Assembly: GCA_044892525.1 (NCBI GenBank)
Contig: CM097887.1
Location: 4,278,001-4,333,332, forward strand
Reading direction: 5' to 3'
Length of the DNA stretch: 55,332 nucleotides
Source: Schmidtea polychroa
Taxonomy: Eukaryota
Below are positions 1 to 37,639 of this stretch, one piece after another. The position numbers and the translations under genes were made by a program. Numbering within the stretch: position 1 is the stretch's first letter; every line of letters starts with the position of its first letter. The notes under the pieces are model-generated. The model saw only the letters and a list, made by a program, of their open reading frames with translations. It was not told where the DNA came from and did not search any database.

Positions 1-146
1 GGGTTAATGGCAATAGGGGACAAAGTTTAAAAGTTAAAAAAAGTGAAGAATATGGGGTAAAAAAGCATATAAATGTGGAAAATATGGGTCAATAGCGCTG
101 TTTTTTTTGAGGGTGGGGGTGCTGGGGTGCATAGATTCCTCACTAC

Positions 147-3062
147 TAACAACAGCTTTTCAACTTTACTTTCAGGCGGATAACAAAGCTCAGGAGCTAT
201 AGGTAAATCATCTAGTTTATCCTGTATACTATCAGGAATGACGATATCAACCTCCAAAACATATCCACGATCTCCATCAAACTCATCCCCATTTGCACAT
301 CTTTTAATAATACCATTCATTTCAGTCTGATCATTTATCCATCTAAATTCACCAACAGGAAGTTTTTGCGACAGAGCCCATCCATATAAATTATTAACAT
401 CTAGGTATGACATTTGTGTTGATACATCAGCTTCAACATGATGTTTGTTGATAAATGTCATTCCACCACGAATACCAGCTTCAAATAAACGGTAAAGCTC
501 TGGATCTTGAATAAGTTCTATCGGTTCAGGTAACTGTTTAATAGCTGATGCCCAACTTAATCCGGGTATGGAAACAAACGATAAAGCCTCAAGTCCATCT
601 TCGTCAAATGTTTTTTTCTCTGAAGGCTTCAAAAACATCGGCCAACAGAAAAACATCCAACTTGAGATATATTAGCATGTAATCTAGCAATGTCTCACAG
701 TTGTATTGTTGCCAGATTCGATTTGCATGTATATAATCTTCTTGACTAACTCCCTCCCAAATTACAGGTAATTCTGTTATTGACTGTAAAACATCCATTG
801 ATGTAGCCATATCATAAGGAAAAATGGTTTTACAAGTCATCATCTGTGATTCGAAAACATCTGAGGTCAGTGGAAGACATGGTAAATTTTTTGATAAATT
901 TGCCAAGCTGCTATTTAAAAATTGTAAAGAATCAATGAATCTAATTCTTCTGCCTTTCGATGTCGCTGTAAGTGTGAGAAACTTTTCTGTTGATTGTGGA
1001 ATAACATTTAAATTCCAATCGGGGAATTTTCCAATTGCATATTTTAATATATGATGAATGCCATATCTACGAAGATTGTGAAATACAACAGGTAAAGACG
1101 GATTAATTCTTCTAGCCAAATTACAATCTTGACATGCTGCTCCGAGATATTGACCGGTAAAATGATCATGATCTCGAACAGGTATATTGATAATCTTTTT
1201 ACAAAGGTAGCAATGAGTTTGGTTCGTAAATTCTTCCTGCTGTTCCCAAGTGAGTTCCATCATTTCATTCGATCCATTTATTTTATACCACGGATAAACT
1301 ATGTCTTTAGCTATATCATCCAATGCTTGTATAAACTGAATGATACAATTTTTCCCAACAAATGTTTCATTTCGAATCGGATGACCTTGATGAAGAAGCA
1401 CAAATTCAGATGCAATCGGTTCATGTTTTTGGAAGTGTTTGTCGTCTAGAGGTAATATTGATTCAAAGTCCGCGTACACAACAAACTGCTGTTTTATAGT
1501 TTTACTCCAGTCTTTAAATTCGATATATTTATTCTCTGGCATTGAGTATAGAGTCGTCCGCTCCACATTCTTCCTACAAAGACCTATATGTCTTTCAAAA
1601 GCAGGACGTTTTCGAAACCCGTGAAGACACGTATTACACCAATGTGATTGGATTCTGACTCCTTCTACTCTATCTCTGTAATTGAGCAGTCGATCGAGAT
1701 TGGTTACAGCCAAATAATGATAATTTAATTCTAAAATTTAGTTAATATTTTTAATGATTAAAAGAAATATTACCTTCTTCAATCAATAGGAGATATATCT
1801 GAGATCCCGTCGAAGTACTTCTATATACCAAGTCAACGAACGGATTCTTGAAAATATTTTCACTATTCTGTTTAATTGGATCTTTATTATATTTGAGAAC
1901 ATTGATCGCTAGTTTAGGATTCATTGCTTCAAATTGGCAAATGTTAACCAACTTCATTGGAAACCAATCTGATTTCCATTTTAACTCTAAATAAAATAAT
2001 ATATGTATAAATATAAATATATAAATATAAATATATATTACCACTTAAATTATATTTCATTACTCTTTCTCTGTGGTGTTTTATGTCATCATAATGTAAT
2101 ACAGCCAGTATGCCATGTAAAAAGCAGAATTGATCATTGTTGTGTACATTAACTAAAGCCAGACAGTTTTTCAGGTAATTTGGCGTTTTAATGTAACTTG
2201 AACCTAAGTAATCTCTTGATTTATATATATAATAATGTAAATAAACTTACCAGATACATGTATTATGTCTGATAATTTAGTTAAAATCATAGTAACTTCT
2301 AATATTTTATGAATTCTCCACCCACTACTTTGTTGAGTGTATTTCTCCAACTTTTCTTTTAATTTTTCAATTCCATCATTAATAAATGAAGATGACATTG
2401 TAATTGCTTTATTCGACAAACACCATTTTTTAATTTCACCATCCTCTTTGATAAACTCTGCACAAAGTCCAAATTGGATTTTTACTGTCCCCATTCGTTG
2501 AATATGATCTTCTATTTCTTTGATGAGACAATCTGGAAAAACAATGTCAGGAGAATTAATTGCAGATACATCGCTTGTCAATTCAACTCGAGAACCATTT
2601 AAGTCAGACTCCCGACGTGGACACAATTGTATGTTAGAGTCTCCATTTCGGTAAAATATTGACTTTCGTTTTGTGGTGCCAGAGTTTTGTCTAACTATAT
2701 TTATAATTAATATTAAACAACCTAAATAACATAACTTGTAACATATTCTTTAATCTGCTTAGGATCGTATAATGTATTCATTTTCGATTGTACTATAAAA
2801 AATTAATAATTGTTAATAGTAGAAGGAGTATTACTTTTAGTGATCATCCTGCTCTTCGTTTCTTCGAATCTTCTAAGATGGTGTCCGTGTTGTCGTACAA
2901 ACATTAACCACCTACCTGGTGTTATAATGAGACATTCCGGACATATGTAACCCGATAAGGTAGAGTCATTTATCTTGAAATATGATGATGTAACTGATTT
3001 ACAGTTCTCCACATCTTCATGACTTTCGGCAATACAAAATTTATATAAACTGCATCCGTTCA
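147..3062 (-). pseudogene. polB: Protein-primed family B DNA polymerase (Polinton/Maverick/adintovirus-type), spliced, frameshifted and 3'-truncated
   Basis: Motifs in order: QSSGW, SSYIKTP..ALVNVHNNDQFCF, FPMKL..FEAMN..INV, HYLAVTNLDRLL, C2H2-like CNTCLHGF..HIGLC, ExoI VYADFES, endonuclease-VII-like CYLC..DHDHFTG..AACQDCNL, ExoII FHNL, FIDS, ExoIII YLKLDV, GIRGG, motif A YLDVNNLYG. Exons 3062-2835, 2792-2736, 2694-2251, 2203-2042, 1986-1774, 1730-~147. There is a +1 A in a run near 612-618, and similarity stops at ~147 before motifs B and C. Confidence 0.9.
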
Positions 3063-3185
3063 CTAAAAGAAAATAATCATTAATATTAGATAGAGAATAA
3101 AAAAATTATTCACTTATATAAGTTAAATTAAATGTTTAATGACAAACATTTGAAAAGTTACTGCTTATATATTACACATGATTAA

Positions 3186-3267: not shown

Positions 3268-4178
3268 TTAAATACATTACGTTGCGGTATTTTAAAACTT
3301 AAATATATTTTAAAAACACATTTTGACACTGAAGTTGATTTATTTAAAATTTTCATAATTTCCATTAATTTCATGATTATTTTCAATATTTTCATGATTG
3401 TTTTCTCCAGAATCTTATTTTATTTACAAATTATTATTACTATTACTATTATTATTATTATTTTTATTATTTATATTATTATTATAATTATTTTAATTAT
3501 TTATATTATTATTATTAATATNNNNNNNNNNNNNNNNNNNNNNNNNNNNNNNNNNNNNNNNNNNNNNNNNNNNNNNNNNNNNNNNNNNNNNNNNNNNNNN
3601 NNNNNNNNNNNNNNNNNNNNNNNNNNNNNNNNNNNNNNNNNNNNNNNNNNNNNNNNNNNNNNNNNNNNNNNNNNNNNNNNNNNNNNNNNNNNNNNNNNNN
3701 NNNNNNNNNNNNNNNNNNNNNNNNNNNNNNNNNNNNNNNNNNNNNNNNNNNNNNNNNNNNNNNNNNNNNNNNNNNNNNNNNNNNNNNNNNNNNNNNNNNN
3801 NNNNNNNNNNNNNNNNNNNNNNNNNNNNNNNNNNNNNNNNNNNNNNNNNNNNNNNNNNNNNNNNNNNNNNNNNNNNNNNNNNNNNNNNNNNNNNNNNNNN
3901 NNNNNNNNNNNNNNNNNNNNNNNNNNNNNNNNNNNNNNNNNNNNNNNNNNNNNNNNNNNNNNNNNNNNNNNNNNNNNNNNNNNNNNNNNNNNNNNNNNNN
4001 NNNNNNNNNNNNNNNNNNNNNNNNNNNNNNNNNNNNNNNNNNNNNNNNNNNNNNNNNNNNNNNNNNNNNNNNNNNNNNNNNNNNNNNNNNNNNNNNNNNN
4101 NNNNNNNNNNNNNNNNNNNNNNNNNNNNNNNNNNNNNNNNNNNNNTTAAAAATAATATTAATATTAAAAAAAATCAGG

Positions 4179-4545
4179 AAAACATGTGTGTATTATACAT
4201 AAAACAAGATACATAGTTTGTAACCAATTATAACTATAGAAAATTAAATTTTATCTATATATTATATGAATAAAATTTCAAGAAAATTAAGTTAAAAGTA
4301 TGAAAAATACAAATTTATTGTAAAAACATGTGTGAATTACACACAAAACAAGATACATAAATTTTAATCAAGCTATTTTATAGAAAATTAAATTTTATCT
4401 ATATATTATATGAATAAAATTTCAAGAAAATTACGTTAACCACGCGGAAAAATACAAATGTATTGAAAAAGCATGTGTGTATTACTGACAAAGAAACAAA
4501 CTGAAATTGTCATTGTGCCATTTTGTAGAAAATTAAATTCTGCCT
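4179..4545. repeat. ~144-bp tandem repeat, about 2.5 diverged units
   Basis: catgtgtg anchors at 4183, 4327 and 4472, with shared atagaaaattaaatt blocks. Confidence 0.75.
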
Positions 4546-4611
4546 ATACATTGTTACACTTAAAACCAGATTGGACCTGTTAAAAGCGACAAAAAAGAGA
4601 AAAAACAGTAG

Positions 4612-5206
4612 AGTAGATGGATTGGTCACCGCGAAAACAGGTCACCGCTGGACCCCCCGCCCGTGTATAATAATGATAATAATAATATTTATATTTACTA
4701 GGCTTTAAAATAAGCTATCGATTAATAAAATCGGATGATGGGATCACTAACTTGTTGCATTACCAAAAGTAGGTCTCCGTTGGAACAAAGACATTAGAAA
4801 TAATAATATTTTTAAAAATAATAATAATTATATATCATTTAACAAGGTCTTGGAAAAATGTTAATAACTTTGTCAATATTAAAGATGGTGATGACAACAA
4901 TAGCTCATTCGAAAGGTAATGCACCAAGCTTCAAAATAAGCTATCGATCAATTAAATAAGTTGATCGTCTTTGATCGATGTCTTTGTTCTCAAGTCGAGC
5001 TTGAATGTTTGATGAGTCATCGGATGAGTCATATGTCTTTGTTCTCAAGTCTACCTTGAATGCTTGATGAATCATCGGATGAGTCATATGTCTTTGTTCT
5101 CAAGTTGAAAAAAAAATTTTTAAAAATTTTTCCGGCCGGGGGGTGGGGGTAAAAAATGTCTTTGTGCTGGCGGTGACCTGTTTTCGCGGTGCCCAATCCA
5201 TCTACT
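4612..5206. mobile_element. MITE with ~36-bp terminal inverted repeats
   Basis: agtagatggattggtcaccgcgaaaacaggtcaccgc at the left and its near-perfect reverse complement ending at 5206. Internal ~48-bp tandem repeat at ~4978-5104. No clear TSD. Confidence 0.85.
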
Positions 5207-5601
5207 AACGTTTTCTAAGCAACAGTGCCGATGTGTTCAACACTATTCTCAACGACATTGTGGTTTTCTGGCCACCTGGATGACCATTTACAAACTCTTT
5301 ACAAACATTTGCTGAGTTTGTAACTGTGATTTAGAAAATAAATATAAAAATTATATGTTCTTTTTTAATTTAATTTTTGGGGGTAAGATAACACGGAAGT
5401 ACCAAACTCAGTCTGCCGGATATTTAATGAATAGTATGCAAAATGGGAATTTCAATTAAAAATCTAATTAATAATGAATGTATTGATGAACGTGTCAGGC
5501 CATATGGAGAATTGTAAAATAATAATAAGATAAATTAAAACTCGTGTAAGTGAAAGATACCTGAAACATAATTATGCCTTTATGAATTATATTATTAAAG
5601 T

Positions 5602-6423
5602 TGTTGAGTTTTTATTTGTAAGTCGGTCCTTTCTCTGACTCCTCGTGTCCTTATTTTACCAAATCAATGAGAACTCAACACAGAATAACTTTATTCGCTT
5701 TTTATCACAATTACAATTTTTCACTATTTGCACCTTTCTCTCAATTTAAATTTGGTTCGCTAAGGTAAGAAACCAAAGGGGCAATTACCTTTTCTTCTAC
5801 GAGTCTAGCTTCTTTATAATTCACAAATTTCCTCTTTTGACTTGTCCTTGCTGGATTTTCTGTTTAGCTTTTTCCTTTTTCTCTTCGACCAAATGGCGGC
5901 TTGCTCATTTCTAAGCTCTCCTTTTATACTGTGTCTAAGAGGCCAATTATCTAGCAAAATGAAATTAATTGTTTCCCCGGACACCCTAAGTAAATTTTGA
6001 AAGGTTCGACAATTATTTTAATTTACTTACCCTGCAATTATAATTCGGATTATTATTACCTTATCTGGTGTCTCGGTTCTCACTGCGCATCGGGTTTTCT
6101 TCAGTGCTCGAGTTTCCCATTGGCTCGGGCTTTCCATTACAGATTAATTAATTTTAATTAATTTGTTTTTCTTTATTAACTTTTTCTATGATCACCCTAT
6201 TACATTTTTATTATGCTGTCTAACCTCGTCTAACAATTTGGCATTCATCCATACCCGATTCCCCCGTTCAATATTGATTTTTAATTTTCATTAAATTTTA
6301 ATTAATTTTGTACTTATATTGATTTAACCAATTTTTGTTCTGCTTTCTGGTACCATGTGAAATTTATTTTGATTTTGCTCTAACCCCAACATATCTCCCC
6401 TTTAATTTAGATTCGTCCTCGAA
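5602..6423 (-). mobile_element. 3' LTR (5602-6391, 790 bp) plus PPT and short internal stub of a related Ty3/Gypsy family
   Basis: TGTT...AACA termini. PPT AAAGGGGAGATA (6392-6403) matches the large element's PPT. TTCGAGGACGAA motif at 6412-6423. Shares the U5 block ctctgactcc.cgtgt.cc and gctcggg..ttcccatt repeats. Confidence 0.85.
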
Positions 6424-12469: not shown

Positions 12470-13675
12470 TCAAACAAAAAGATATCTAACTCTCCCCTTC
12501 TTAAGACTTTTTCTACTTCTTCAGCCACTCGATTCTTCTTTCTTTCTTTTGTTCCTTTTAGTTCAACTTGATGAGGTGATAGAAATCTGACGATTTTATA
12601 TGGGCCATCGTATACCATTCTTGTGCCTGTTCTGCGGCTCTTTACGTACGAGTACCTCCTCCCCCACCTCGAAAACACGAGTGCCCCTCTTTGTCTTATC
12701 CATAGCTCTCATAGTGTCTGCGGCTTTACTCGAGTTAAATCTCGCGTCTTCGATTCTTTCGCTTCTTGATATCTCGGCTTGTTTCAGGTTAGAGTGTAGG
12801 TTAACACTCCGTCCATAAATTATCTCAAATGGTGATAAACCTGAAGCACTTTGTCGACTGCTATTTATAGTGAACTCTATTCCGGGTAGAAGTTTGTGCC
12901 AGTTTCTCTCTTCACATCCACCTGCCAATGTTGCTGTAATAAGATCTCTTATCGTTTGTATGGCTCGTTCGGCTAAACCATTTGATTGGCGCTGGTAAGG
13001 TGAGCTGAATTCCTATTTGATTCCAAGTTTCTGTAGCTTCTGTCTTAGGAAATTCCCTTCGACTTTGCGGTCTCTATCTGTTAAAATGCTCTTCGGTTTT
13101 CCAAATCGATAGATCCAACTATTAAGTATTGTTTGTCCCTTCGTCTTGCTTTGTGATTGCAGTTAAAGAAATCAGTTTGCTAAACCGGTCCACCATTACT
13201 ACAATATATTTTTTATGGCGTTTATTTCCATGTAAGCCACATCCATAACAATCTGTTCTAGGAATTCAGAGCTATATCTAGAAATAAATGTTTCATTGGT
13301 TCTTGTCTGATCGATCTTTCTCTTAGCGCAGATCTCGCAACATTGTAAACCAAGTTGGATTGTTTCTTGCATTTTCGGCCAATAAAATATCTTTTCCATA
13401 TAATGAAATAATTTCTTAACTCCAATGTGACATAGTTCTTCATGTAGGGTTGTTGTTAACAGGCCTGCAAATGTTTCTGGGACTAACATTAAGATATTTT
13501 TGTTCTTTTCTACTGTTATTAATCCTCCATCAATTCGTGTATTTTTTACGTTAAAAGGAAAACAATTCTTTTTCTCCCGTGTACATCCATTTTCTAATAT
13601 CTCTCGCAGTTCTCGAAACCGAATGTCCTTTTGTTGTTATTCACATACTTTTCCATAGCTTCTGTTCATTGGATA

Positions 13676-14757: not shown

Positions 14758-14949
14758 AGCACGACCATCCGGAAGAGGGGTACCCCCCCCCCCCCCTATT
14801 GCTGCCATAATTATTTTCTGCTTTTTGATTACGTAATTGCTGCCGGGGGCTCCACATATCTTTTTCAATACATATAGATAGGGCCTATAGAAAAAAGGCC
14901 AAGATTTTTCTGACTATAGTGAAGGGGTCTCCTTGGTCCTGGGATTTTC

Positions 14950-15363
14950 ATGTTTTATAAGATAAGAAAGCAGTTAGGGAATTTAAACTATAGGATAGTG
15001 TCAACTTCTTGGAAAGTACGCAATATGTTTATTAGTAAGTCAAAAACTCCGGTCCAATTGTGTTCCGATCTCGTTTATCAGTTTACATGTAATGGGTGTA
15101 ATGCCACATACATTGGAGAGACTTCCTGTCATCTCTGTATTCGAGCTCGAGAACATTGTAGACCGAAGGCTTTGACCCATATTGGTGAGCACAATAAGGG
15201 CTGTAAGATTAAAATAGGTATGTCTGATTTTAAAATTTTATTAAAAAATTTCGATAATTATTGGGAACGTGTGATTTGTGAGGCGTTGTTGATAAAATCA
15301 TTGAATCCGAAAATTAATGTGCAGAATGCAATGAATACTTGTATCTTAAATGTTTTTAAATAA
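14950..15363 (+). mobile_element. 5'-truncated Penelope-like element, GIY-YIG endonuclease domain
   Basis: LVYQFTCNGCNATYIGET..R..EH..H..E..EALLIKSLNPKIN: GIY-YIG with the CCHH insert typical of Penelope. Confidence 0.9.
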
Positions 15364-27536: not shown

Positions 27537-28670
27537 TTATACAGTGGTTTCGATCACACTGAAAGGCTCGAGTCGTAAATCAGTTATAATATGCTGTCTA
27601 TTTTTGCACAGAATGATTGTTATTATTATGAACACCAGAGATAATATGAGAAATGCTGTCAGGATGAGGTATATCAAATATTCACATATAATTAGAGCTT
27701 GATCAGTCTCAATTTGAGTCCGCTTATTTATTACACGATTGTTAACTTGGTATTGTTTTGTAGTAATTGGACCTGCTGTGGTTACATCAGATTTCAGGCC
27801 TGGTACCCTTCTCGTTTCCACCAGAACGGTTTTCCATCGATATGGCTCGAATATCCGTTGTTGATATTTGATTTTTATCAGGTAATCATATTCTAAATTA
27901 GAACTAATTAATGAAAAATAGCTTTTACCGGCATCCAACAAAACGATAATTTTTTTTTCATTACTGATAATCACTCTTTCGTCATCTGGGGATTTCGATA
28001 AATTGTTATTGACCCGTTTTGAACTCCAAGAATCACACGATTCGATACATTCTTAAGGGGAATTATTTGATTCTCTGTTTGAAACAATGTCCATTTATTT
28101 TTCATTATTGTGCCATTATCATACATCGCATTTTCGTAGTAATTAACCGTTATTGTATAATTTGAGTTCATTTTGAGATTGTAATACCGAGTGTAAGCCT
28201 TTCGCATGTTTAGAATATCCACAAAATTTTGAAATATGACCTGCACCTTTACTCTTTCTACGGCTACCCAATACACATCTATACCATTCATTATCGGCTC
28301 AATTTCCACGGTATTCCATAATTCGTTAGTTTGTATTATAATTCGAATTTGACTATTAAACTTTTCAAGCGAATCTGATTCATTCTGCTTTATGATCCAT
28401 GGATACTTGAAGTTAACTTTTAATTCTCGTGCCGCATACGTATTTCTGTCATAATTCAAAATAATGAAAGGTGTGAACGGGTCTAACACGTTGCTAATTT
28501 CTATTTGCTCCATTATTTCGCACTGATAAGTCCAAACAATATTTGTAAACGTGGAATAAATATCGATCTTGTCCCATAAGGGTATTTTTGTTATCGCATA
28601 TGGTAAATCCATTCTCATCCCTTTTACCCTTGTCATCATCATTAGCACGACTGTTGTGAATAGCACTCTG
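27537..28670 (-). CDS. Second type I membrane (env-position) protein fused to the integrase C-terminus
   Basis: Hydrophobic signal VLFTTVVLMMM, ectodomain with sequons NES, NYT, NGT, NVS and NGS, one -1 shift near 27990, ~30-aa TM LIICEYLIYLILTAFLILSLVFIIITIILC and a 22-aa tail. Confidence 0.7.
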
Positions 28671-28789
28671 TTAAGATAACTGATTGGAACTGGATTTTTG
28701 GTGAATTTTTGTTGAATTTTTGTATCCGCCTTCTCTTCATTTCGTTTCGATCGTAATGGATATCTTTCTTCGTCATTTTCCGGGACCAA

Positions 28790-30190
28790 TTTACAACGAT
28801 TGGCATGAACTATTATAGGATTTGCCTTTTTACTCCTAAACGGTAATAACTTCAAATTTGTTTCGGTTGTATCACACACTTTATATGGCCCTTTAAATGG
28901 TCTCTGTAACTTTGGAGACATACCTTTGAGTGGTTCTGGTCTGTTAAGATACACTAAATCTCCAATTTTTATTCCATGAGGTCGTGTTTTCTTATCGTAG
29001 GCTTCTTTGTACTTCTCTTGATTATGTTTTATTGTTAATCCGGCTTTTGTCCAAACCGACTGTACCCTCTCTTGCATTATCGCATTATACTCGGGTACTT
29101 CCATATATTGAGTAACGGGTGATTGGAAGTTTAGATCTATCGGCATGTTGTTTCGTCTTAAGTACATTAAATAAAACGGTGTCTCTCCCGTACTTGGGTT
29201 GACAGCATTTCTATATGCAAACAAACAAGGCTTTATGTAGTCGTCCCAATCTCTCTGTTTGCTATTTACATACGACGAAATCATATTTATCAATGTGCCA
29301 TTAAATCTCTCGACTAAACCATCGGTTTGTGGATGGTAGGGCGAAGTATTCAACTTCCAGATTCCGAATAACTCGGTGATTGATTTAAATAATTCGCTTT
29401 GGAAATTTTTACCTTGATCAGTTAATAACTTTTTTGGGGTACCATATCGGAAAATAATGTTCTCTACAAATATTTTTGCTACTGTATCAGCCTTTTGATT
29501 TGGTATGGCGTAAGCTTCCGGCCATCTTGTCAAATAATCACAAAATACTACGATGCATTTATTTCCTTTTATTGTTTCAGGTAACGGCCCAACAATGTCC
29601 ATTGCAGTCATCTCCATTGGTGCGGTTGGAACAGACATTGGTTTTAAAGGTACTTTAATTTTATTGCCTGTATTTCTTCGAGTTATACATATCTTACAAT
29701 TTTTGCACCAATCTTTTACGTCTTTTTCCATCATTGGCCAATAGTACTTCATTTTCAGTCTTGATAAGGTTTTTCTAGCGGACAAGTGTCCTCCTAGGGC
29801 TCCATCATGATATTGCATCAACAGTGAATCTCTCTGTTTTTCAGGGATCATAATCAATATCTCGTCGTTTTTCACGCATTTTAATATTCCCTCGTGAATT
29901 ATGTATTTATGATTTTCACTCATTACCTGTTTTAAATCTTTCTCCTTTCTGACCGTGATTGCTTGTTCAAAGAAATGTTTAAGTCGGTTATCCTTTTTCT
30001 GTTCGTTTTGTAATTCAGTCACATTATTAACGGCTTTGATTGCTGCAAATATTGTGCCTTCCACTTTTTCTGTACCAGTATCCTCTCCACTAAGCCCATT
30101 GGGAATTCTTGACATTGCATCGGCATTTGCATTCGCTTTTCCTGCTCTATATTTTATTTCGAAATCATACTCTTGGGAGCAATTGACCAT
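28790..30190 (-). CDS. End of RNase H plus integrase (HHCC, DDE core, GPY/F)
   Basis: QEYDFEIKYRAGKANANADAMSR, HDGALGGH..YYWP..CKNC..C, MDIVGPLP, TDQGKNF, YHPQTDGLVERFN, FKGPYKV. Confidence 0.97.
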
Positions 30191-32160
30191 CTGATTAATT
30201 TACTAGTTGAATCTCTATGCTTCATTAACCACTGAAGGGGGTTGTGATCAGTATATACAACGAATTTTCGTCCCAGCAAATATTGTCTAAACGTAGCAAT
30301 GCCGTAAACTAGCGCTAATGTCTCTTTTTCGATTGTCGAATAATTTTTTTCATGTGACCTTAAAGATCTGCTTGCATACGCTATTACGTGATCCTTTTCA
30401 CCGTCCACTTGCTGACCTAACACCGCTCCCAATGCCACGTTACTGGCATCGGTCATTAATAGGAAAGATTTCGTAAAATCTGGGCATCGCAAAATAGGTG
30501 CCATTACTAATTTCTGCTTTAACGTGTCAAAAGCTGATTGTTGGGTTTTGCTCCATGTAAACTTATTATTTTTCTTTAACAGCGAATTTAATGGCTGAGC
30601 GATATGCGAGAAATTCTTTATAAACTTTCTATAATAGCTTGCTAATCCCAGAAATTGCCTCACCTCGCCCGCGTTCTTTGGAATTGGATACGCTTCCACC
30701 TTTTTAATATTGTCCGGATTAGTTTGCAGACCTCTTCTTGATATAATATGACCAACATATATTACTTCAGATTTTCCCCATTCACATTTTGATGGTTTTA
30801 TTTTCAATTTTGCGCTTTTAAGTCGCTTAAATACTGTTTCCACATCATCGAGATGCTCGTCAAAGCTATTCGAAAAAATAATTATATCATCAATATAAAC
30901 TAGCGCATGTCTGATGCCTCTCAACACAAAATTCATACCTCTTTGGAATGTAGCTGGGGCTCCCGTTAAGCCAAACGGCAAGACATTGAACTCATATAAG
31001 CCTTTACCATCGGAAAATGCCGTTTTCCTTCTATCTTCTTTTTTTACTTTAAATTGATTATAGCCTTTGTTCAAATCGATGACCGTAAAATACTGGGCTT
31101 CTCCCATCTGATCAAACATTTCTTGAGGTACGGGAATTGGATAAGTATCCTTTCTTGTTACTTGATTCAGTTTTCTATAATCAACACAAAACCTTAAATC
31201 TCCGTCCTTTTTCTTGAATATTACAATAGACGAAGAAAATGGTGAGGAGCTGTCTCTGATTATCCCAAACTCTTTCATCGCCCTGATTTGTCGATCACTC
31301 TCGGTTTGATGGATGTAAGGGATTCTGTACGGTTTTATTTTAACCGGAGTTTCATCCAGCAACGGGATTTCGTGCTCTATTATATTTGTTAGCCCCAAGT
31401 CGTATTCATGTTTCGCAAAAATATCTCGATATCTCCTCAACAATTTTGTAAATTCCTGTTTTTGTTTTTCGGTCAGGTCCTTGTTCACAACTTCGGGTTC
31501 CTTATAAATTTTTACGTTTCTGGGAATTTTCTTTTCTGTTTCTACCGACATGTGAGACAGTTTTCCCAATCTTGTCTGTGGCTTTAATCGTATTGATTTA
31601 TCACCATAATTCGCTATTCGCACTGGTAGCAATTGGTTTTCCACTTTCACGATTTCATCGCACATTGGGGTCTCGTATTTTTCAATTAACGTTTGACTGG
31701 GTTCGAATATGAATTCATCATTATCGACACTAGTCGCGCTAGCATAATATACCACTTCTGTTTGAGGTGGGATAGTTAATGATTGGTTTAGAAACACTTC
31801 TCCTGAATTACGAATGACTTCACCTATTTTCCCCACTATCAGGTTTCCAGTTTTGAAATCAAGTGAGATTCCGTCTAATTGTTCTAATACATCCATTCCA
31901 ATCAAGCACAATACAGGACTTTTCTCCATAATTTGCACATTATGTCTAATTCTTCTATCACCGATTATCAGTTCAACTTCGATTTCTCCGATTACTGGCA
32001 ACACATTTCTGGATAACGATCTGATTACACTATCGGATGGTTGGATTCGTTTTTTCTCTTCCATCGACAGTATTTCTTCTGATATAATTGTATGACTCGA
32101 TCCAGAATCCACCACGGCTTCAACTCTGTTTTTGTTTATTTGAATTACTATTCGTGGTTG
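30154..32160 (-). CDS. pol: Aspartic protease, reverse transcriptase and RNase H
   Basis: VVDSGSS; PVKIKPYR, RFCVDYRKLN, IDLNKGYNQ, PFGLTGAPATFQ, YIDD; TDASNVALGAVL, EKETLA, TDHNPL. A 1-nt deletion at ~30178 (WSIA/LQEYDF). Confidence 0.98.
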   Translation of the reverse strand, partial: QPRIVIQINKNRVEAVVDSGSSHTIISEEILSMEEKKRIQPSDSVIRSLSRNVLPVIGEIEVELIIGDRRIRHNVQIMEKSPVLCLIGMDVLEQLDGISLDFKTGNLIVGKIGEVIRNSGEVFLNQSLTIPPQTEVVYYASATSVDNDEFIFEPSQTLIEKYETPMCDEIVKVENQLLPVRIANYGDKSIRLKPQTRLGKLSHMSVETEKKIPRNVKIYKEPEVVNKDLTEKQKQEFTKLLRRYRDIFAKHEYDLGLTNIIEHEIPLLDETPVKIKPYRIPYIHQTESDRQIRAMKEFGIIRDSSSPFSSSIVIFKKKDGDLRFCVDYRKLNQVTRKDTYPIPVPQEMFDQMGEAQYFTVIDLNKGYNQFKVKKEDRRKTAFSDGKGLYEFNVLPFGLTGAPATFQRGMNFVLRGIRHALVYIDDIIIFSNSFDEHLDDVETVFKRLKSAKLKIKPSKCEWGKSEVIYVGHIISRRGLQTNPDNIKKVEAYPIPKNAGEVRQFLGLASYYRKFIKNFSHIAQPLNSLLKKNNKFTWSKTQQSAFDTLKQKLVMAPILRCPDFTKSFLLMTDASNVALGAVLGQQVDGEKDHVIAYASRSLRSHEKNYSTIEKETLALVYGIATFRQYLLGRKFVVYTDHNPLQWLMKHRDSTSKLIRWSIAPKSMISK

Positions 32161-32584
32161 TTTACCAATTTTCGCTAACGCCATTAGTACGTAATTACCA
32201 GGTAAGCCTAACCTATTTCTTCTTTCAATTTCTGCGCTCGTTGGATCGATTCTCTCACACTGTAGTGCAATGTTCTCAACTGGCTTCATTTCTATCAATT
32301 TATCTACCGGATATGCTGGTAGTGGTTGTATAAATGATTTTGGTATGCATAATCTAGTGAATGTATCCTGGTTGCCATCATTAGAAAATGATTCTTTTAT
32401 TAGTTGATAATTTTTCCATGTATCGGCTTGATTCCGTTCCTCCTCGTATGACGGTGCCGATTCCCCGATTTTCTCGTTGTCACTTTTGTCCTCATTAGAA
32501 GTAGTGGTTACATCAATATAACTTACCTTTCTCTTTTTCGTTAATCGTGCTTTCAACGTTTCCAACTCTCGATATTGATGATGT

Positions 32585-34439
32585 GTTATAAAAAATCTGG
32601 CTAACAATGGTATACATCCAATAACCAACTTCCACGACAGACCTGTAATAGTGTATAATCTGTGTGTTGATAACACCTGCGAAACTATTACTTTAATCAT
32701 GATTCCGATCACATATATTCCGATTAATCCCGCGCAGGCTTGCCCGATAAACATAAATTTTCCCCAAATCTTTTTCATCGTATTATACGTCGCCTTTTTG
32801 TAATGATCCACTGTTAATAAATAGTCGTAATTCACTTTTCCAGTTCCACTCGGGAGAATAGTGTCTACTATTTCCGTTATTACCCTTTCCTTTTTCGAGG
32901 GGAATAATAAGTTTCTGCGTGCTGCTTCAATATCATCACTTGAATACATTCCACTTTGAGTCATGCTGTCTAGCGATGTAAAGTTAATTAGATATTCTAA
33001 TTTTGTCAACTCCAATTTTTCTGGGACTTTCACCCACCTATGATCAGGTAGTGCAATCCATGATTCGGGCGTCAGGCGGTATAGTGGAGCCAATAATCTG
33101 TTGCACTGCAACACTCTCGGTTTCGCGTCCTCCTCCAATAAAATTCGTGTCACCGGCTCCATGAATCGTAGCTTCCCATTAACATTCACAGGCAGTTCAT
33201 TTGTGCATTGATTGTATTTCATCAATTTAATAGGTACTGCCTTGCATTTATAACTATATAAGGCTTCACCAAGCATTCGAGCGAATACTCCATTCTCCGA
33301 AATCAACATTGGAGCAACTAGATTCGGGTTCGTGATAGCCATCGCCATTCTGTTTCGCAGGATTTCTTTGTTTAACTTGCAATCATTTAGTATGATTTCC
33401 CTGTACACACTTTCAATTGTATCTTGGCTAAAATGAAATAAATAGTCAATCTTATTATTGAAATAGTTCGTTAGTTTAATTTCCTCTGCGTACAATTTTG
33501 TTTGAGCTTCTTCGACAACTTTCTTGGATAAATAAATTCCTTTATAATTGGTCTCATAAACAGTTTGTCCACACTTCGTATTTACGCTCTTCCTTAAGAA
33601 TCTCATCCCATCGTTTGGGGACATTGCCATTAAAACCGTTGGCGTTTTCTTCAAGCGTATCGGTGTGATTCTAAGTGTCATATTCATGACTGAGTTTAGC
33701 ACTGTGCTTTCTGGTCTCTCTTGGATCTGCTCTCCCGTTATCTCTTTAAAAGGCATTGATTTTAAATGTGCTAAATTGCATTTTTTGGTATCAACTTCAT
33801 ATACCAGAATTGACTCACCTGTGTTGCAGCTTTCTCCCTCATGTTACAAAATGGATGGGTTTGCAATTTTCCCGTATCGTCATCGAATGATCCATCAAAA
33901 TACCTTAATTCGGTTTCATATTCTTCTATCACGACGGTTTTATCAATGACTGTTTGTCCTACTTTATACGCTTCACCCTCGCAATCGCCATTTGCCTTGA
34001 TTATCCCCTTAACTGCTATAGTTTCACGAATTTTATAGTTTAATTTAGCCTTCAAATTAATTTCTGAATTTATTTTCAGCTCTCCTGTTTGGAACGCTGC
34101 CAAACAGTTTTCCCGTGTCACCTCTATTACTCTTGGAATTGAGTGCATTTTGATTAATGACGAATGGCTCCATTTGCCACAGTAGAATATAAACGTAGTT
34201 CTTTTTGCTGTGCATTCTCTCACTTTCACTCGTCTAAATCCCGCTTCTTGGTATACGTGGTATGTCACTTCATTTGCCCATTTTAAGTTCCTCGGATATG
34301 CGTCTGGACACTCTGCTACATCTACTAGCGAATATACTTTTCCCATTTCTGTCTGGGAGCAATCGTACGCTACCAAGGACGTTGTGGTATTAATAACTCC
34401 TAAAATCACCAAAATAGACATGGTTAGCCATGGAAACAT
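32585..34439 (-). CDS. Chuvirus-like (class III, gB-related) fusion glycoprotein embedded in the polyprotein
   Basis: Signal-like segment, then AYDC..SLVDVAEC, FYCGKWSH, CLAAFQTG, CGQTVYET, YFNNKIDY..CKL, GEALY..KC, CTNELPV..FMEPVTRIL, SGMYS..LLFP, and TM region WGKFMFIG..GLIGIY. Split by a -1 shift between ~33830 and 33775. Confidence 0.88.
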
Positions 34440-34489
34440 TATTTTCCCTCTTTTCGGCTCATAATTTCTTCCAGTTGTCGCAGTCTCCG

Positions 34490-34865
34490 ACTTTTGCACC
34501 AAGTTTTCCCATCCTCCATTACGCATAATCCAACCCGTCACATATGTATTCGCCACTTCGGTGGCTTTTACTATCTATTTTTCCGATTTATCGCATTCCA
34601 AGCATCCATATACGCCAATTTCTAGAACAATATAAGCAAGGACTGTTAGTACCACGTCTCTGTTCAAACCGTTCCTGATTAATCTCTTGACTACTGTTTC
34701 ATCGCAAAATACCCTCTCTATGGTATTATCCTTTAGTACTACTGGAAGCCGACTTTTTAATACCGCTGCAAGCTGATGTATGAGTTCATCGTCACAACTA
34801 TTTCCTTCTTCCAGTGCATATAATTCTGTTACTAACCCTTTCAAAATTGATTCTGTTTGAGACAT
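34490..34865 (-). CDS. Bcl-2-like domain spanning an in-frame TAG
   Basis: BH1-like ETVVKRLIRNGLNRDVVLTVLAY and BH2 WIMRNGGWENLV are in the same frame, separated by TAG 34575-34577; a hydrophobic anchor follows ~18 aa after BH2. Confidence 0.68.
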
Positions 34866-36347
34866 ATTATTCAGATCCGTTTTTTCAACCACATTGGAAT
34901 CTATTCGATCGTTCTCTTCGTTTCCACCCATTAATTCGATTTTACACCGCTTTCGACCATTCAATTTACTTTCCGCTTCTACAAAATTCGACTCACTTTT
35001 CACTCTTTCACTCACTAGTAGCTCGTCGGTTATATGGTTAGTTTCCTGATTTACTGAATCATTTTCGTCCACCTCCTCACTCGTAATTTCGTCTTGCTCG
35101 TCATTTATGCCTTCATCTTTTGGGTCATGCTCTTCTAACTCGTAGTCGTTAGGTTCTTCAGCCAATTCCTTTTTAATTTCCATGTCATCATCCTTCGTAT
35201 CCTTTGTAATTCTCGGCCAGTGGGTTATTATACTCTCGGATACCTCCCTCACCTGTTTCTTGGCTTCGATATTATTTATATAATTCGGACTGCACCCACA
35301 ATTGATTAAGTATTCATCGTCATCTAACTCAACTCCCTTGAAAGTTAGTATAACAATTCCATCATTACCCAACATTTCCACCGCTTTCCGTCGTACTTTC
35401 GACACCTTCATGCTCCAGTGTTCTTGTAAGTACTCCACTTTCCCATTCATATTTAAGGCTATTACCAATGATCTGGGTATCTCATCTGACTCTCGGTGCT
35501 CACGGCCCATTTTTCGTACTATTTCTTTCAATTTCGCCTGATAGTTCGTCGTTTTATGAATATACGGTAAAATACTCTCGAATAATTGTTCCTTCGCTTT
35601 TTGATCCATCTCCGAACTTATCATTCGTTCCGGACAATTACTAATTTCGTCTTCATCTCCAATATACAGACTATCCCGTAAATCCTGTAATTTTTCCTCC
35701 CATCCTTTAAAGTCTGAATTTGAATGATTAATTACATTGAATATCTTTACCTCATTTTTATATCCAGGAATCAGCCCACAATCGACCAAATATTCTCCAT
35801 CCGCCAATTGACCCATCGACCGTTTTTTGAAATTTATTTGCACTTCATTTGCTTTATATTTCGACATAATGAGCTCCCTCAAATCCTTTATTTGCCCGCT
35901 AGGTTTAATCGTAAATTGAAAGTTTCTGCCATTTCCGTCTGTAGTTTCTACGAATATGTCGGTCAAGCTCTCTGTGGATCTCAGTGCTTTTCCCAATGTC
36001 TTTATTAGTTTTGCAATTTCATCGTCTTGGTATTTATTGTAAACTTTGACACACATGTTTAAAATAATTTTCAATTTTCTTTGGCTAAGTTGGATTTGAG
36101 TTAGTTCGGTAATCCACTCTTTCAATCTCGGAAGGTCTGTTTTCATTCCGGTATACCATCTTTCTATTTTCTTTATCAACAGAACAGCCTTTTCATTTGA
36201 TAGATCATTTTTTGCTTTATCACTAAGATTTCCGCCCGCATCGGCCTCTTTTTCGTACACCATACACGAATCTGCTTCCTCATCTGATTCGAACTTTGAC
36301 ATAAGCTTGTTTAATTTCTGTCTCATTTCCCGAAATTCATTTTCCAT
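34575..36347 (-). CDS. Accessory polyprotein segment: helical N-terminus, two ubiquitin-like domains, acidic linker, start of Bcl-2-like domain
   Basis: In frame with gag. UBL1 IFVETTDG..IKPSGQIKDLR..QLADGEYLVDCGL; UBL2 ..LTFKGVELDDDEYLINCG. Confidence 0.75.
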   Translation of the reverse strand: MENEFREMRQKLNKLMSKFESDEEADSCMVYEKEADAGGNLSDKAKNDLSNEKAVLLIKKIERWYTGMKTDLPRLKEWITELTQIQLSQRKLKIILNMCVKVYNKYQDDEIAKLIKTLGKALRSTESLTDIFVETTDGNGRNFQFTIKPSGQIKDLRELIMSKYKANEVQINFKKRSMGQLADGEYLVDCGLIPGYKNEVKIFNVINHSNSDFKGWEEKLQDLRDSLYIGDEDEISNCPERMISSEMDQKAKEQLFESILPYIHKTTNYQAKLKEIVRKMGREHRESDEIPRSLVIALNMNGKVEYLQEHWSMKVSKVRRKAVEMLGNDGIVILTFKGVELDDDEYLINCGCSPNYINNIEAKKQVREVSESIITHWPRITKDTKDDDMEIKKELAEEPNDYELEEHDPKDEGINDEQDEITSEEVDENDSVNQETNHITDELLVSERVKSESNFVEAESKLNGRKRCKIELMGGNEENDRIDSNVVEKTDLNNMSQTESILKGLVTELYALEEGNSCDDELIHQLAAVLKSRLPVVLKDNTIERVFCDETVVKRLIRNGLNRDVVLTVLAYIVLEIGVYGCLECDKSEK

Positions 36348-36362
36348 TTTCTCTTTAAACTC

Positions 36363-37478
36363 CTACTTTTGAGCATATGCAACATTAGTATTTGCTGATT
36401 CATCTTGAAATCTAATAGATTTCCTCAATATTGGTCGGCTAAATCTTTCTGAGTTTCGGGGGCATGATCGAGCCATGTGGCCATAACCTTTGCATGAATG
36501 ACATTGAATTTGTCCATTAGTGTTCACTTTATCTCGTTGGGGCGACGGGGATCTTGATGGTGATGGGGTACCTGAAAAACAATTCCTGCTTATGTGGCCC
36601 ATTTTCCCACATCTATAGCATTTCAAGTCATTAATAATTGGCTTACTTTCTACAAACTTTCTTCTGGGGCTGGGGTCTCTTCCATATTTAAACCAGCATT
36701 GATTTGAATAGTGTCCCACTTTCTTGCAGTGATCGCATACTATGCTGTTAGATCTCGCAGCCACCTGACTCCCAAACGCTGCTTTATTAATTTCGACTTT
36801 ATTACTTGGTCTTGGCGAACTGATTGTTTGGGTTGGTTTCTTTGATACCCATTGTTCTCGAACTGGAGTTACCGACCTTTCTCTTTTATCGGCATTTGCA
36901 GCAAATACTTCGGATTTTCTGGTACTTTTCAAGTTCAATTCAATTTTCATGGCTTTTTTCACAAGTTCATCAAAATTCGAGAAATCCACGTAGCATAGGG
37001 CTTTTTTAATTTCAGGAAGGGCTCCATTTATAAATTGATCTTGAAGCAGTTCTCTGACTTGTTTTACCATCTCAACTTGTTCAGGCTTTGCTTCGAAGGC
37101 TTTGTCTGCTAAAGTCGTTAAATGGTATGCAAATTCACTTACCGATTCATTTGGATTTTGTACTCTGGCATAAAATTTTTGGCGCATTATTCTTTTTATA
37201 TCGCCTCCCACCAATTTCATTGCCATCGCATCCTTGAGTTTGGCCCAATCATTTCCAATTGTCTTTTTATCCACTTGCTGCCAAGCTTCTCTTGCGGCTC
37301 CTTTTAAATAGAGTGGGAATCTTTGTACCATTATGGCCTGTGACCACCCATAGGCCGAAGCGTACATATAATAATCGCCCATGAAATCGGCAAAATCAAC
37401 CGGGTCTCCTCCATACTGATTCACCGGTAATTTTTGACAACTGGCAAAATCTATCATCTCAGCGTTCTCTCTGGCCAT
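36363..37478 (-). CDS. gag: Gag with three CCHC zinc knuckles
   Basis: Retrotransposon-gag features (LKGAAREAW, R.QNPNESVSEF, QFINGA) and CDHCKKVGHYSNQC, CYRCGKMGHISRNC, CHSCKGYGHMARSC. First ATG at 37478; frame open from 37514. Confidence 0.95.
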   Translation of the reverse strand: MARENAEMIDFASCQKLPVNQYGGDPVDFADFMGDYYMYASAYGWSQAIMVQRFPLYLKGAAREAWQQVDKKTIGNDWAKLKDAMAMKLVGGDIKRIMRQKFYARVQNPNESVSEFAYHLTTLADKAFEAKPEQVEMVKQVRELLQDQFINGALPEIKKALCYVDFSNFDELVKKAMKIELNLKSTRKSEVFAANADKRERSVTPVREQWVSKKPTQTISSPRPSNKVEINKAAFGSQVAARSNSIVCDHCKKVGHYSNQCWFKYGRDPSPRRKFVESKPIINDLKCYRCGKMGHISRNCFSGTPSPSRSPSPQRDKVNTNGQIQCHSCKGYGHMARSCPRNSERFSRPILRKSIRFQDESANTNVAYAQK

Positions 37479-37639
37479 CTTTACTTTTCGGTTCCTCAAA
37501 TTGTATTCACTCACGGCTAAATATTAAAATTAATAATCAATAATTACTACCTCTTCCAATTTCCAATTATTTTCAATTTTCTTATTACTTTAATTTTTTT
37601 CACCTCTTTCACCCTTCAATATTCGCCCACCAACGTTTA

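Follow-up and report, generated by a model that had tools for sequence, protein, structure and literature searches.

Does a gene for protein-primed DNA polymerase B (PolB) of the Polinton lineage carry spliceosomal introns and, if so, how old are they and what could they do? The question is raised by a minus-strand gene in a stretch of 55,332 nucleotides from Schmidtea polychroa, hereafter the window. The explanation that we favour for the whole, and consider probable, is that this gene is the protein-primed PolB (pPolB) of a high-copy Polinton derivative, that its gaps are spliceosomal introns removed by the host, and that its replication and intron history are as we infer them below.

A preliminary description had proposed five GT-AG introns in this gene, all of phase 1, and all five were confirmed on the minus strand, with the coordinates and lengths given in Table 1. 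An acceptor noted there at 3063 proved to be the end of a 51-nt gap, the donor of which, at 3113, had been missed in the first reading. The exons between the gaps and the first exon are multiples of three in the same open phase, and the A+T content is 81-95% in five gaps versus 63-74% in the exons. A gene-model script blind to phase, the scores of which were chosen after the window's introns were known, found all five introns plus the sixth (3063-3113). The catalytic part of PolB is free of introns, as had been described, and other copies of the family show an 870-aa open frame there. The window copy itself is broken: it has a frameshift near 604-671, and another Polinton interrupts it at 147. 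Introns of the 42-60 nt size class to which the PolB gaps belong also occur in host myosin and ABC genes. Overall, the proposal of spliceosomal-type introns in a protein-primed PolB of the Polinton lineage is supported.

Table 1. Features of the PolB gene and of the adjoining parts of the element (positions in the window).
Positions	Strand	Feature	Evidence or remark
1..147		TIR of a separate complete 14.6-kb Polinton inserted in the PolB gene	6-bp target duplication AACAAC
148..603	-	Palm region of PolB; frame differs from that of upstream part in window copy	PF03175 E 2e-4
604..1730	-	Last exon, upstream part: vOTU end (His strand), Zn-binding Cys/His motif, exonuclease carrying an HNH/endonuclease VII insert	PF03175 E 7e-11; PF02945 E 8e-5
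1731..1773	-	Intron 5, 43 nt, phase 1	Position shared with L144, L152, P0005; acceptor only in L160, L162
1774..1986	-	Exon 5 (213 nt), vOTU second part	
1987..2041	-	Intron 4, 55 nt, phase 1	39-91 nt among copies; found in no relative
2042..2203	-	Exon 4 (162 nt), vOTU first part including predicted catalytic Cys	
2204..2250	-	Intron 3, 47 nt, phase 1, terminal protein/vOTU linker	Same codon in L144, L152
2251..2694	-	Exon 3 (444 nt), whole terminal-protein (little-finger/PAD-like) domain, invariant Ser in SSGW	Fold modelled on relative L140
2695..2735	-	Intron 2, 41 nt, phase 1	One length in all copies
2736..2792	-	Exon 2 (57 nt), linker	Least supported exon; no match among homologues
2793..2834	-	Intron 1, 42 nt, phase 1	Contains in-frame stop
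2835..3062	-	Exon 1 (228 nt), Cys/His-rich putative zinc-binding leader	Opens with last two bases of predicted start codon
3063..3113	-	Predicted intron 0, 51 nt, phase 1	Splits start codon
3114..3267	-	Promoter and 5' exon as predicted: a 45-nt repeat in two copies, each holding a CCAAT box; TATA-like TATATAAG (3164-3171)	Function inferred
4158..4552		144-bp tandem repeats of inner arm	
4612..5206		Central module bounded by inverted AGTAG...CTACT ends of its own (37 nt)	Palindrome centre in family, element end in window

Removal of the outermost gap (3063-3113) would create a start codon (A/TG). Exon 1 aligns to the N-terminus of the homologues P0002, P0010, P0015, P0020 and P0025, and with the split ATG the window protein starts in register with P0002, P0010 and P0015. 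The donor of intron 0 is retained in 44 of the 47 covered loci. A second TATA-like TATATAAG, at 3113-3120, overlaps this donor and could be the true TATA box, thereby removing intron 0.

Copies of the family were compared in an alignment of 31 rows, i.e., the window and 30 distinct sequences taken from 39 full-length matches among 51 loci, with the two arms of one element counted as separate rows. Every exon has one length in 31/31 rows and five of the six gap lengths vary; gaps 1, 3, 4 and 5 differ among copies, including by non-multiples of three, and gap 2 measures 41 nt throughout. GT/AG is retained at gaps 1-5 in 31/31, 31/31, 31/31, 29/31 and 31/31 rows, respectively, and in a further 50 loci, which partly overlap with the first set, GT-AG is retained at introns 1-5 in 48/49, 49/49, 46/46, 41/42 and 49/50 of the loci covered, none of the 50 missing any gap. 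Because variants shared between family copies in the exons are 31 synonymous to 28 non-synonymous, versus 17 to 78 among singletons, the family evolves under purifying selection in the spliced frame.

Taking out the gaps brings the frame into line with that of homologues, to the codon, at junctions 3-5 and at the start. At junction 3 (44/44) and junction 5 (42/45) the number of residues is equal in intron-free homologues, a set with a bias towards single open frames. At junction 4 it is equal in 2 of 45 homologues, the two closest ones shown (P0001 and P0002), the others carrying a nearby two-residue insertion. The linker that holds junctions 1 and 2 cannot be aligned, and the number of residues there is equal in 1/33 and 20/30 homologues. 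The two upstream introns had been proposed on frame logic only; the homology of exon 1 (E 5e-10) and the fixed exon and variable intron-1 lengths now speak for them, but for exon 2 the homologue search gave no match and the shared variants (0 synonymous, 2 non-synonymous) no purifying signal. One 140-nt intron skipping exon 2 would likewise keep the frame.

The spliced product is predicted to be a leader-terminal protein-vOTU-exonuclease-polymerase polyprotein of about 1,240 aa. Pfam detected PF03175 and the endonuclease VII-like insert (PF02945) in the last exon, and no match in the small exons. For the intron-free relative L140, whose first 418 residues were modelled (pLDDT 84), Foldseek gave no match at E <= 0.001; the fold assignment rests on matches of residues 119-228 to the little finger of PolIV (4IR1; Z 8.6, rmsd 2.4, 92 aligned) and of residues 240-369 to OTU proteases (8C83; Z 7.2, rmsd 4.0, 102 aligned). 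As modelled, these two folds are the terminal protein and the vOTU of PMC11161782, where the pPolB order is terminal protein-vOTU-exonuclease-palm. The predicted priming Ser and the vOTU catalytic Cys and His are invariant in 70/70 aligned relatives. Introns 4 and 5 map to residues 288 and 359 of L140, inside the vOTU, and intron 3 to residue 234, in the linker between the two modelled folds.

The element that carries this gene is abundant and mostly palindromic. In the 781 Mb of genome searched, at least 150 near-identical copies were found among the matches listed, and of the best 150 matches 104 form 52 head-to-head pairs, with none tail-to-tail or in tandem. The copies examined include palindromes of 12.4-13.6 kb with AGTAGT...ACTACT ends, the inverted repeats of which (~5.7-6.5 kb) hold the whole PolB gene, and shorter deleted or one-armed forms. 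Arm identity is 99.5-99.8% within five elements versus 93-99.3% between elements. Target duplications of 6 bp flank the AGTAG...CTACT ends in 7/8 of the first copies examined and in 5/10 of the next regions. Linked integrase, capsid, ATPase and protease genes, for which the preliminary description had suggested a search in fuller copies, were found in 0/12 delimited elements with markers from two in-genome Polintons; no other long ORFs occur inside the elements, PolB being the sole cargo, and the upstream flanks of unpaired matches gave 1 short integrase match in 20. PolB genes of the clade have such neighbours elsewhere: integrase and capsid-like genes adjoin an in-genome copy from the clade of a second family (see below), and the PolB of L149, a relative with linker introns, lies next to genes for integrase, a capsid-like protein and protease. 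The copy in the window is one-armed, with no target duplication found, and the remainder of its interrupted PolB gene, with the outer AGTAGT end, lies at about G000:C3:4261876-4263535, beyond the inserted Polinton.

Several other features deserve mention in their own right. The inserted Polinton (G000:C3:4263535-4278147) is complete. It encodes an integrase fused to a phospholipase A2-like domain and a double jelly-roll capsid, and has frames resembling ATPase and protease genes as well as a PolB frame of 1472 aa without introns, followed by a 187-aa frame that duplicates the PolB C-terminus. A second, related PolB-only palindromic family is intron-poor (L099/L100, L101/L102, L103/L104), with lengths of 12.1-13.4 kb, 1291-aa frames and target duplications in 3/3 pairs (I, J and K). 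In its outer ends, AGTAGATGGAT, this second family is similar to the intron-bearing family's central module, and its frame opens with intron-like AT-rich sequence and a possible phase-1 acceptor. At L022:274-3676 a piece of this second family adjoins the outer end of the window's element, with promoter and central module in common at 89-95%, which suggests an exchange between the two palindromic families. A pair of 934-bp inverted repeats, 98.7% identical (the first at about 5207-6138, also given as 5008-5939, the second at about 6568/6569-7500), adjoins the end of the window's element. Elsewhere in the window, a Gypsy retrotransposon on the minus strand (27537-37523) encodes gag and then an env-like fusion glycoprotein (PF24664) before protease, reverse transcriptase and integrase; Gypsy elements with env between gag and pol have been described for Schmidtea (PMC6431247). 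A weak GIY-YIG match on the plus strand (14923-15363, E 8e-4) and an integrase zinc-binding fragment on the minus strand (13199-13636) are probably other decayed mobile elements.

With regard to splicing itself, 15 sequencing runs were listed, none of them on record as RNA, and contigs of four were examined. One 269-nt contig of run X3 (RNA by guess) has a net 43 nt missing at intron 5 (1731-1773); it carries another organism label, is ~88% identical to the family and has a depth of 39.5. A DNA relative without introns, if present in that organism, would look identical to its joined form. Introns 1 and 2 are crossed unspliced by further contigs, from X1, X2 and X3. Splicing is thus supported by the sequence and by one contig only, which is short of proof. 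We consider it very likely that the gaps are spliceosomal introns that the host must remove before the polymerase polyprotein can be made.

The preliminary description had regarded the introns as a host-style gain in this lineage, a view that the relatives bear out for one intron and contradict for two. A metagenome scan for relatives yielded 75 loci, and a search of viral contigs 3 loci, with one long match only, at 29%. In two relatives, L144 and L152, GT-AG introns fall in the very Gly codon that intron 3 splits, and likewise in the codon of intron 5; L160 and L162 start at the position of the intron-5 acceptor, and P0005 shows a 15-residue in-frame read-through insert at the intron-5 position. 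Relatives sharing the positions of introns 3 and 5 are at 46-59% identity, and these two introns are common to distant relatives, although patchily. Intron 4 looks new: it is absent from every intron-5-type relative covering its site, L144 and L152 included. The gene-model script gave no introns for L139, L140, L141 and L148, and linker introns only for L149/L157, L151 and L164. The five rows with intron 5 are not one clade among 20 (monophyly rejected, AU p 1e-158), and L144 is sister to L148, L149 and L151, all without introns 3 and 5, with a support of 99. Introns 3 and 5 need either repeated precise loss or parallel gain because their carriers are not one clade and relatives without them are nested among these. 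We infer that introns 3 and 5 would be old features of the PolB lineage, precisely lost several times, with parallel gain as the alternative, and that intron 4 would be a gain of the window's family. Separately, L144 apparently lacks the Cys/His leader; its terminal protein is preceded by two tiny exons, of which one measures 24 nt (L144:139-330).

An ancestral origin followed by loss is not free of difficulties, since it requires many losses, most long homologues being intron-free (44/44 at junction 3), in a DNA-replicating element without an obvious reverse-transcription route for losing introns. All introns could instead be recent independent gains, with the matches at introns 3 and 5 as parallel gains at favoured sites, a possibility that we take seriously but consider rather improbable. 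It agrees with the predominance of intron-free homologues, including the nearest full-length relatives P0001 and P0002, with the scatter of the intron-5 rows on the tree (4 changes versus 4.6 with shuffled labels), and with the G that precedes the cut at sites 3 and 5, a common insertion context. On the other hand, the same codon pair is used jointly in three separate lineages (window, L144 and L152), and the ~870 codons of the catalytic part hold no intron in the matched frame of any modelled close relative, both of which argue against such gains.

Under our preferred explanation, host RNA polymerase II would transcribe integrated copies from the CCAAT/TATA-like promoter, and the host would splice the transcript constitutively, the removal of intron 0 creating the start codon. 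The vOTU may then free the terminal protein from the polyprotein, as hypothesized in PMC11161782. Copying by the polymerase would begin at the AGTAGT ends of the excised element. Through folding back at the central module, one arm might further be copied onto the other, by analogy with the panhandles of adenovirus. Finally, an integrase from a complete Polinton would insert the element in trans; such a helper is postulated because target duplications are present without an integrase gene.

Alternatively, splicing might act as a control switch, in which retention of intron 3 would yield a free leader-plus-terminal-protein primer, the split start codon would confine the polymerase to cells able to splice it, and the uniform phase would let exons be skipped in frame. 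Intron 3 lies between the terminal-protein and OTU folds, where PMC11161782 places a predicted cleavage. When it is retained, a stop follows after 15, 19 and 32 codons in the window, L144 and L152, respectively. Precedents exist in the germline splicing of the P-element and in adenovirus, where the polymerase starts on a small spliced exon. However, retention of any of the 22/22 introns checked leads to an early stop, so intron 3 is not special; the invariant Cys and His of the vOTU mean that cleavage could free the primer; and many relatives have no intron 3. We therefore regard such a switch as unlikely and retain constitutive splicing.

The uniform phase of the introns calls for an explanation of its own. 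The phase-blind script gave models for 57/80 loci. In the close clade (at least 42% identity), 25/25 intron calls were of phase 1, or 22 after removal of a near-duplicate locus, counts that exclude possible 5' introns in three in-genome intron-poor relatives modelled from a downstream ATG. Distant relatives gave 39 calls, with phases 0/1/2 at 15/10/14, mostly low in A+T and probably false calls. Host genes run through the same script gave 57 calls at 16 loci (phases 33/17/7), with some low-scoring models; the ABC transporter genes of this control are mostly intron-free and supplied one locus. Two candidate causes were rejected, a host-wide phase-1 bias, as 17/57 host calls are of phase 1, and an effect of codon context acting alone, which gives 0.003 for the six introns of the window. 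As a side observation, the ABC transporter gene cluster at G000:C1 ~193.47-194.26 Mb (L280-L287) has open frames of >2000 aa and is apparently intron-free, which is unusual in an intron-rich host.

The 25 calls are not independent because leader and linker introns may descend from one. At L151:80-469, three tandem 66-nt exons, two of them plainly paralogous, lie between four phase-1 introns, in what looks like a clear exon-plus-intron duplication; linker introns can thus multiply with their phase, and we propose that tandem duplication of such exon-plus-intron units is how they would do so. With a single origin for every leader and linker intron, four events are left (0.3^4 = 0.008). We conclude that the phase-1 rule itself is real. 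For the introns inside conserved domains, our guess is that phase 1 provides compatibility for module exchange between elements at same-phase introns. The best matches differ by part (P0010/P0004/P0003 for exon 3, P0008/L140/L139 for the catalytic part), which does not in itself speak for module exchange. It seems doubtful that the single-phase introns are a working device of a polymerase-only palindromic replicon, in which co-replicating elements would swap the leader, terminal protein and protease as modules and host splicing, through the split start codon and the intron at the terminal protein/protease boundary, would set the timing and ratio of primer and polymerase.

Insertion by an intron-generating transposon (introner) favouring one phase would account for the uniformity, and introners have been reported inside Polinton-like viruses of dinoflagellates (PMC12166617), but the six introns, compared among themselves only, are dissimilar (1/15 pairs at p 0.01, the rest at 0.1 or more) and the junctions inspected have no duplicated flanks, which makes this origin very improbable. 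That the gaps are AT-rich insertions in a decaying gene, never spliced, is scarcely credible: the contigs crossing introns 1-2 unspliced would fit, but the fixed exon lengths, the retained GT/AG, the purifying selection, the positions common to distant relatives, the many near-identical copies with an open 870-aa last exon and the one exact junction do not.

How does the element compare with known systems? Animal Polintons/Mavericks (eupolintoviruses, adintoviruses) likewise have AGTAGT...ACTACT ends and 6-bp target duplications (PMC8097293) and the same pPolB order (PMC11161782), but their core genes have been called intron-free (PMC8097293; 10.1101/2022.07.12.499685), whereas here PolB has six introns and integrase, capsid, ATPase and protease are lacking. 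Polinton inverted repeats are given as 100-1500 bp (10.1101/2023.08.22.554363), versus the ~5.7-6.5 kb observed here. The pPolB2 Polintons of nematodes and oomycetes share the HNH insert in pPolB (here PF02945), but are complete elements, and the parts of the source available to us describe no spliceosomal introns in them (10.1101/2023.08.22.554363). A pPolB near a repeat without integrase was reported at 10 nematode loci (10.1101/2024.01.15.575659). The dinoflagellate Polinton-like viruses also have spliceosomal introns, but these are young repeated transposons (PMC12166617), unlike the present introns, which are mutually unrelated, position-conserved between lineages and of one phase. As in the present gene, the core gene of Ginger DNA transposons has 1-4 GT-AG introns, some of them position-conserved; it encodes an integrase-type transposase and no polymerase, with no single-phase rule described in the accessible part of that work (PMC2836005). 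Cytoplasmic linear plasmids are capsid-less pPolB replicons derived from polintons (PMC11161782). Compared with these and with adenovirus E2B, the present element is nuclear, integrated with target duplications and palindromic, with terminal protein and polymerase in one gene. The element works like a Polinton replicon, yet is without integrase and capsid and is not intron-free. No paper on PolB-only palindromes, or on animal Polinton pPolB genes interrupted by spliceosomal introns, was returned by our literature search, and a spliced pPolB is not described in the parts seen of PMC8502044, 10.1101/2023.08.22.554363 and 10.1101/2024.01.15.575659, although Repbase or supplements may describe them.

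These results have consequences for how such elements are surveyed and understood. Polinton core genes are annotated as single open frames, so that surveys miss the terminal-protein and protease parts of spliced polymerases. The introns, if confirmed, would mean that these elements depend on nuclear host splicing, and that 1.4 kb of sequence preserves the traces of exon duplication, of a phase rule and of introns lost or gained in parallel, in hundreds of copies and several lineages. Questions of intron origin and phase would become testable in one fast-evolving gene, and the polymerase-only palindromes would be a natural record of Polinton end copying.
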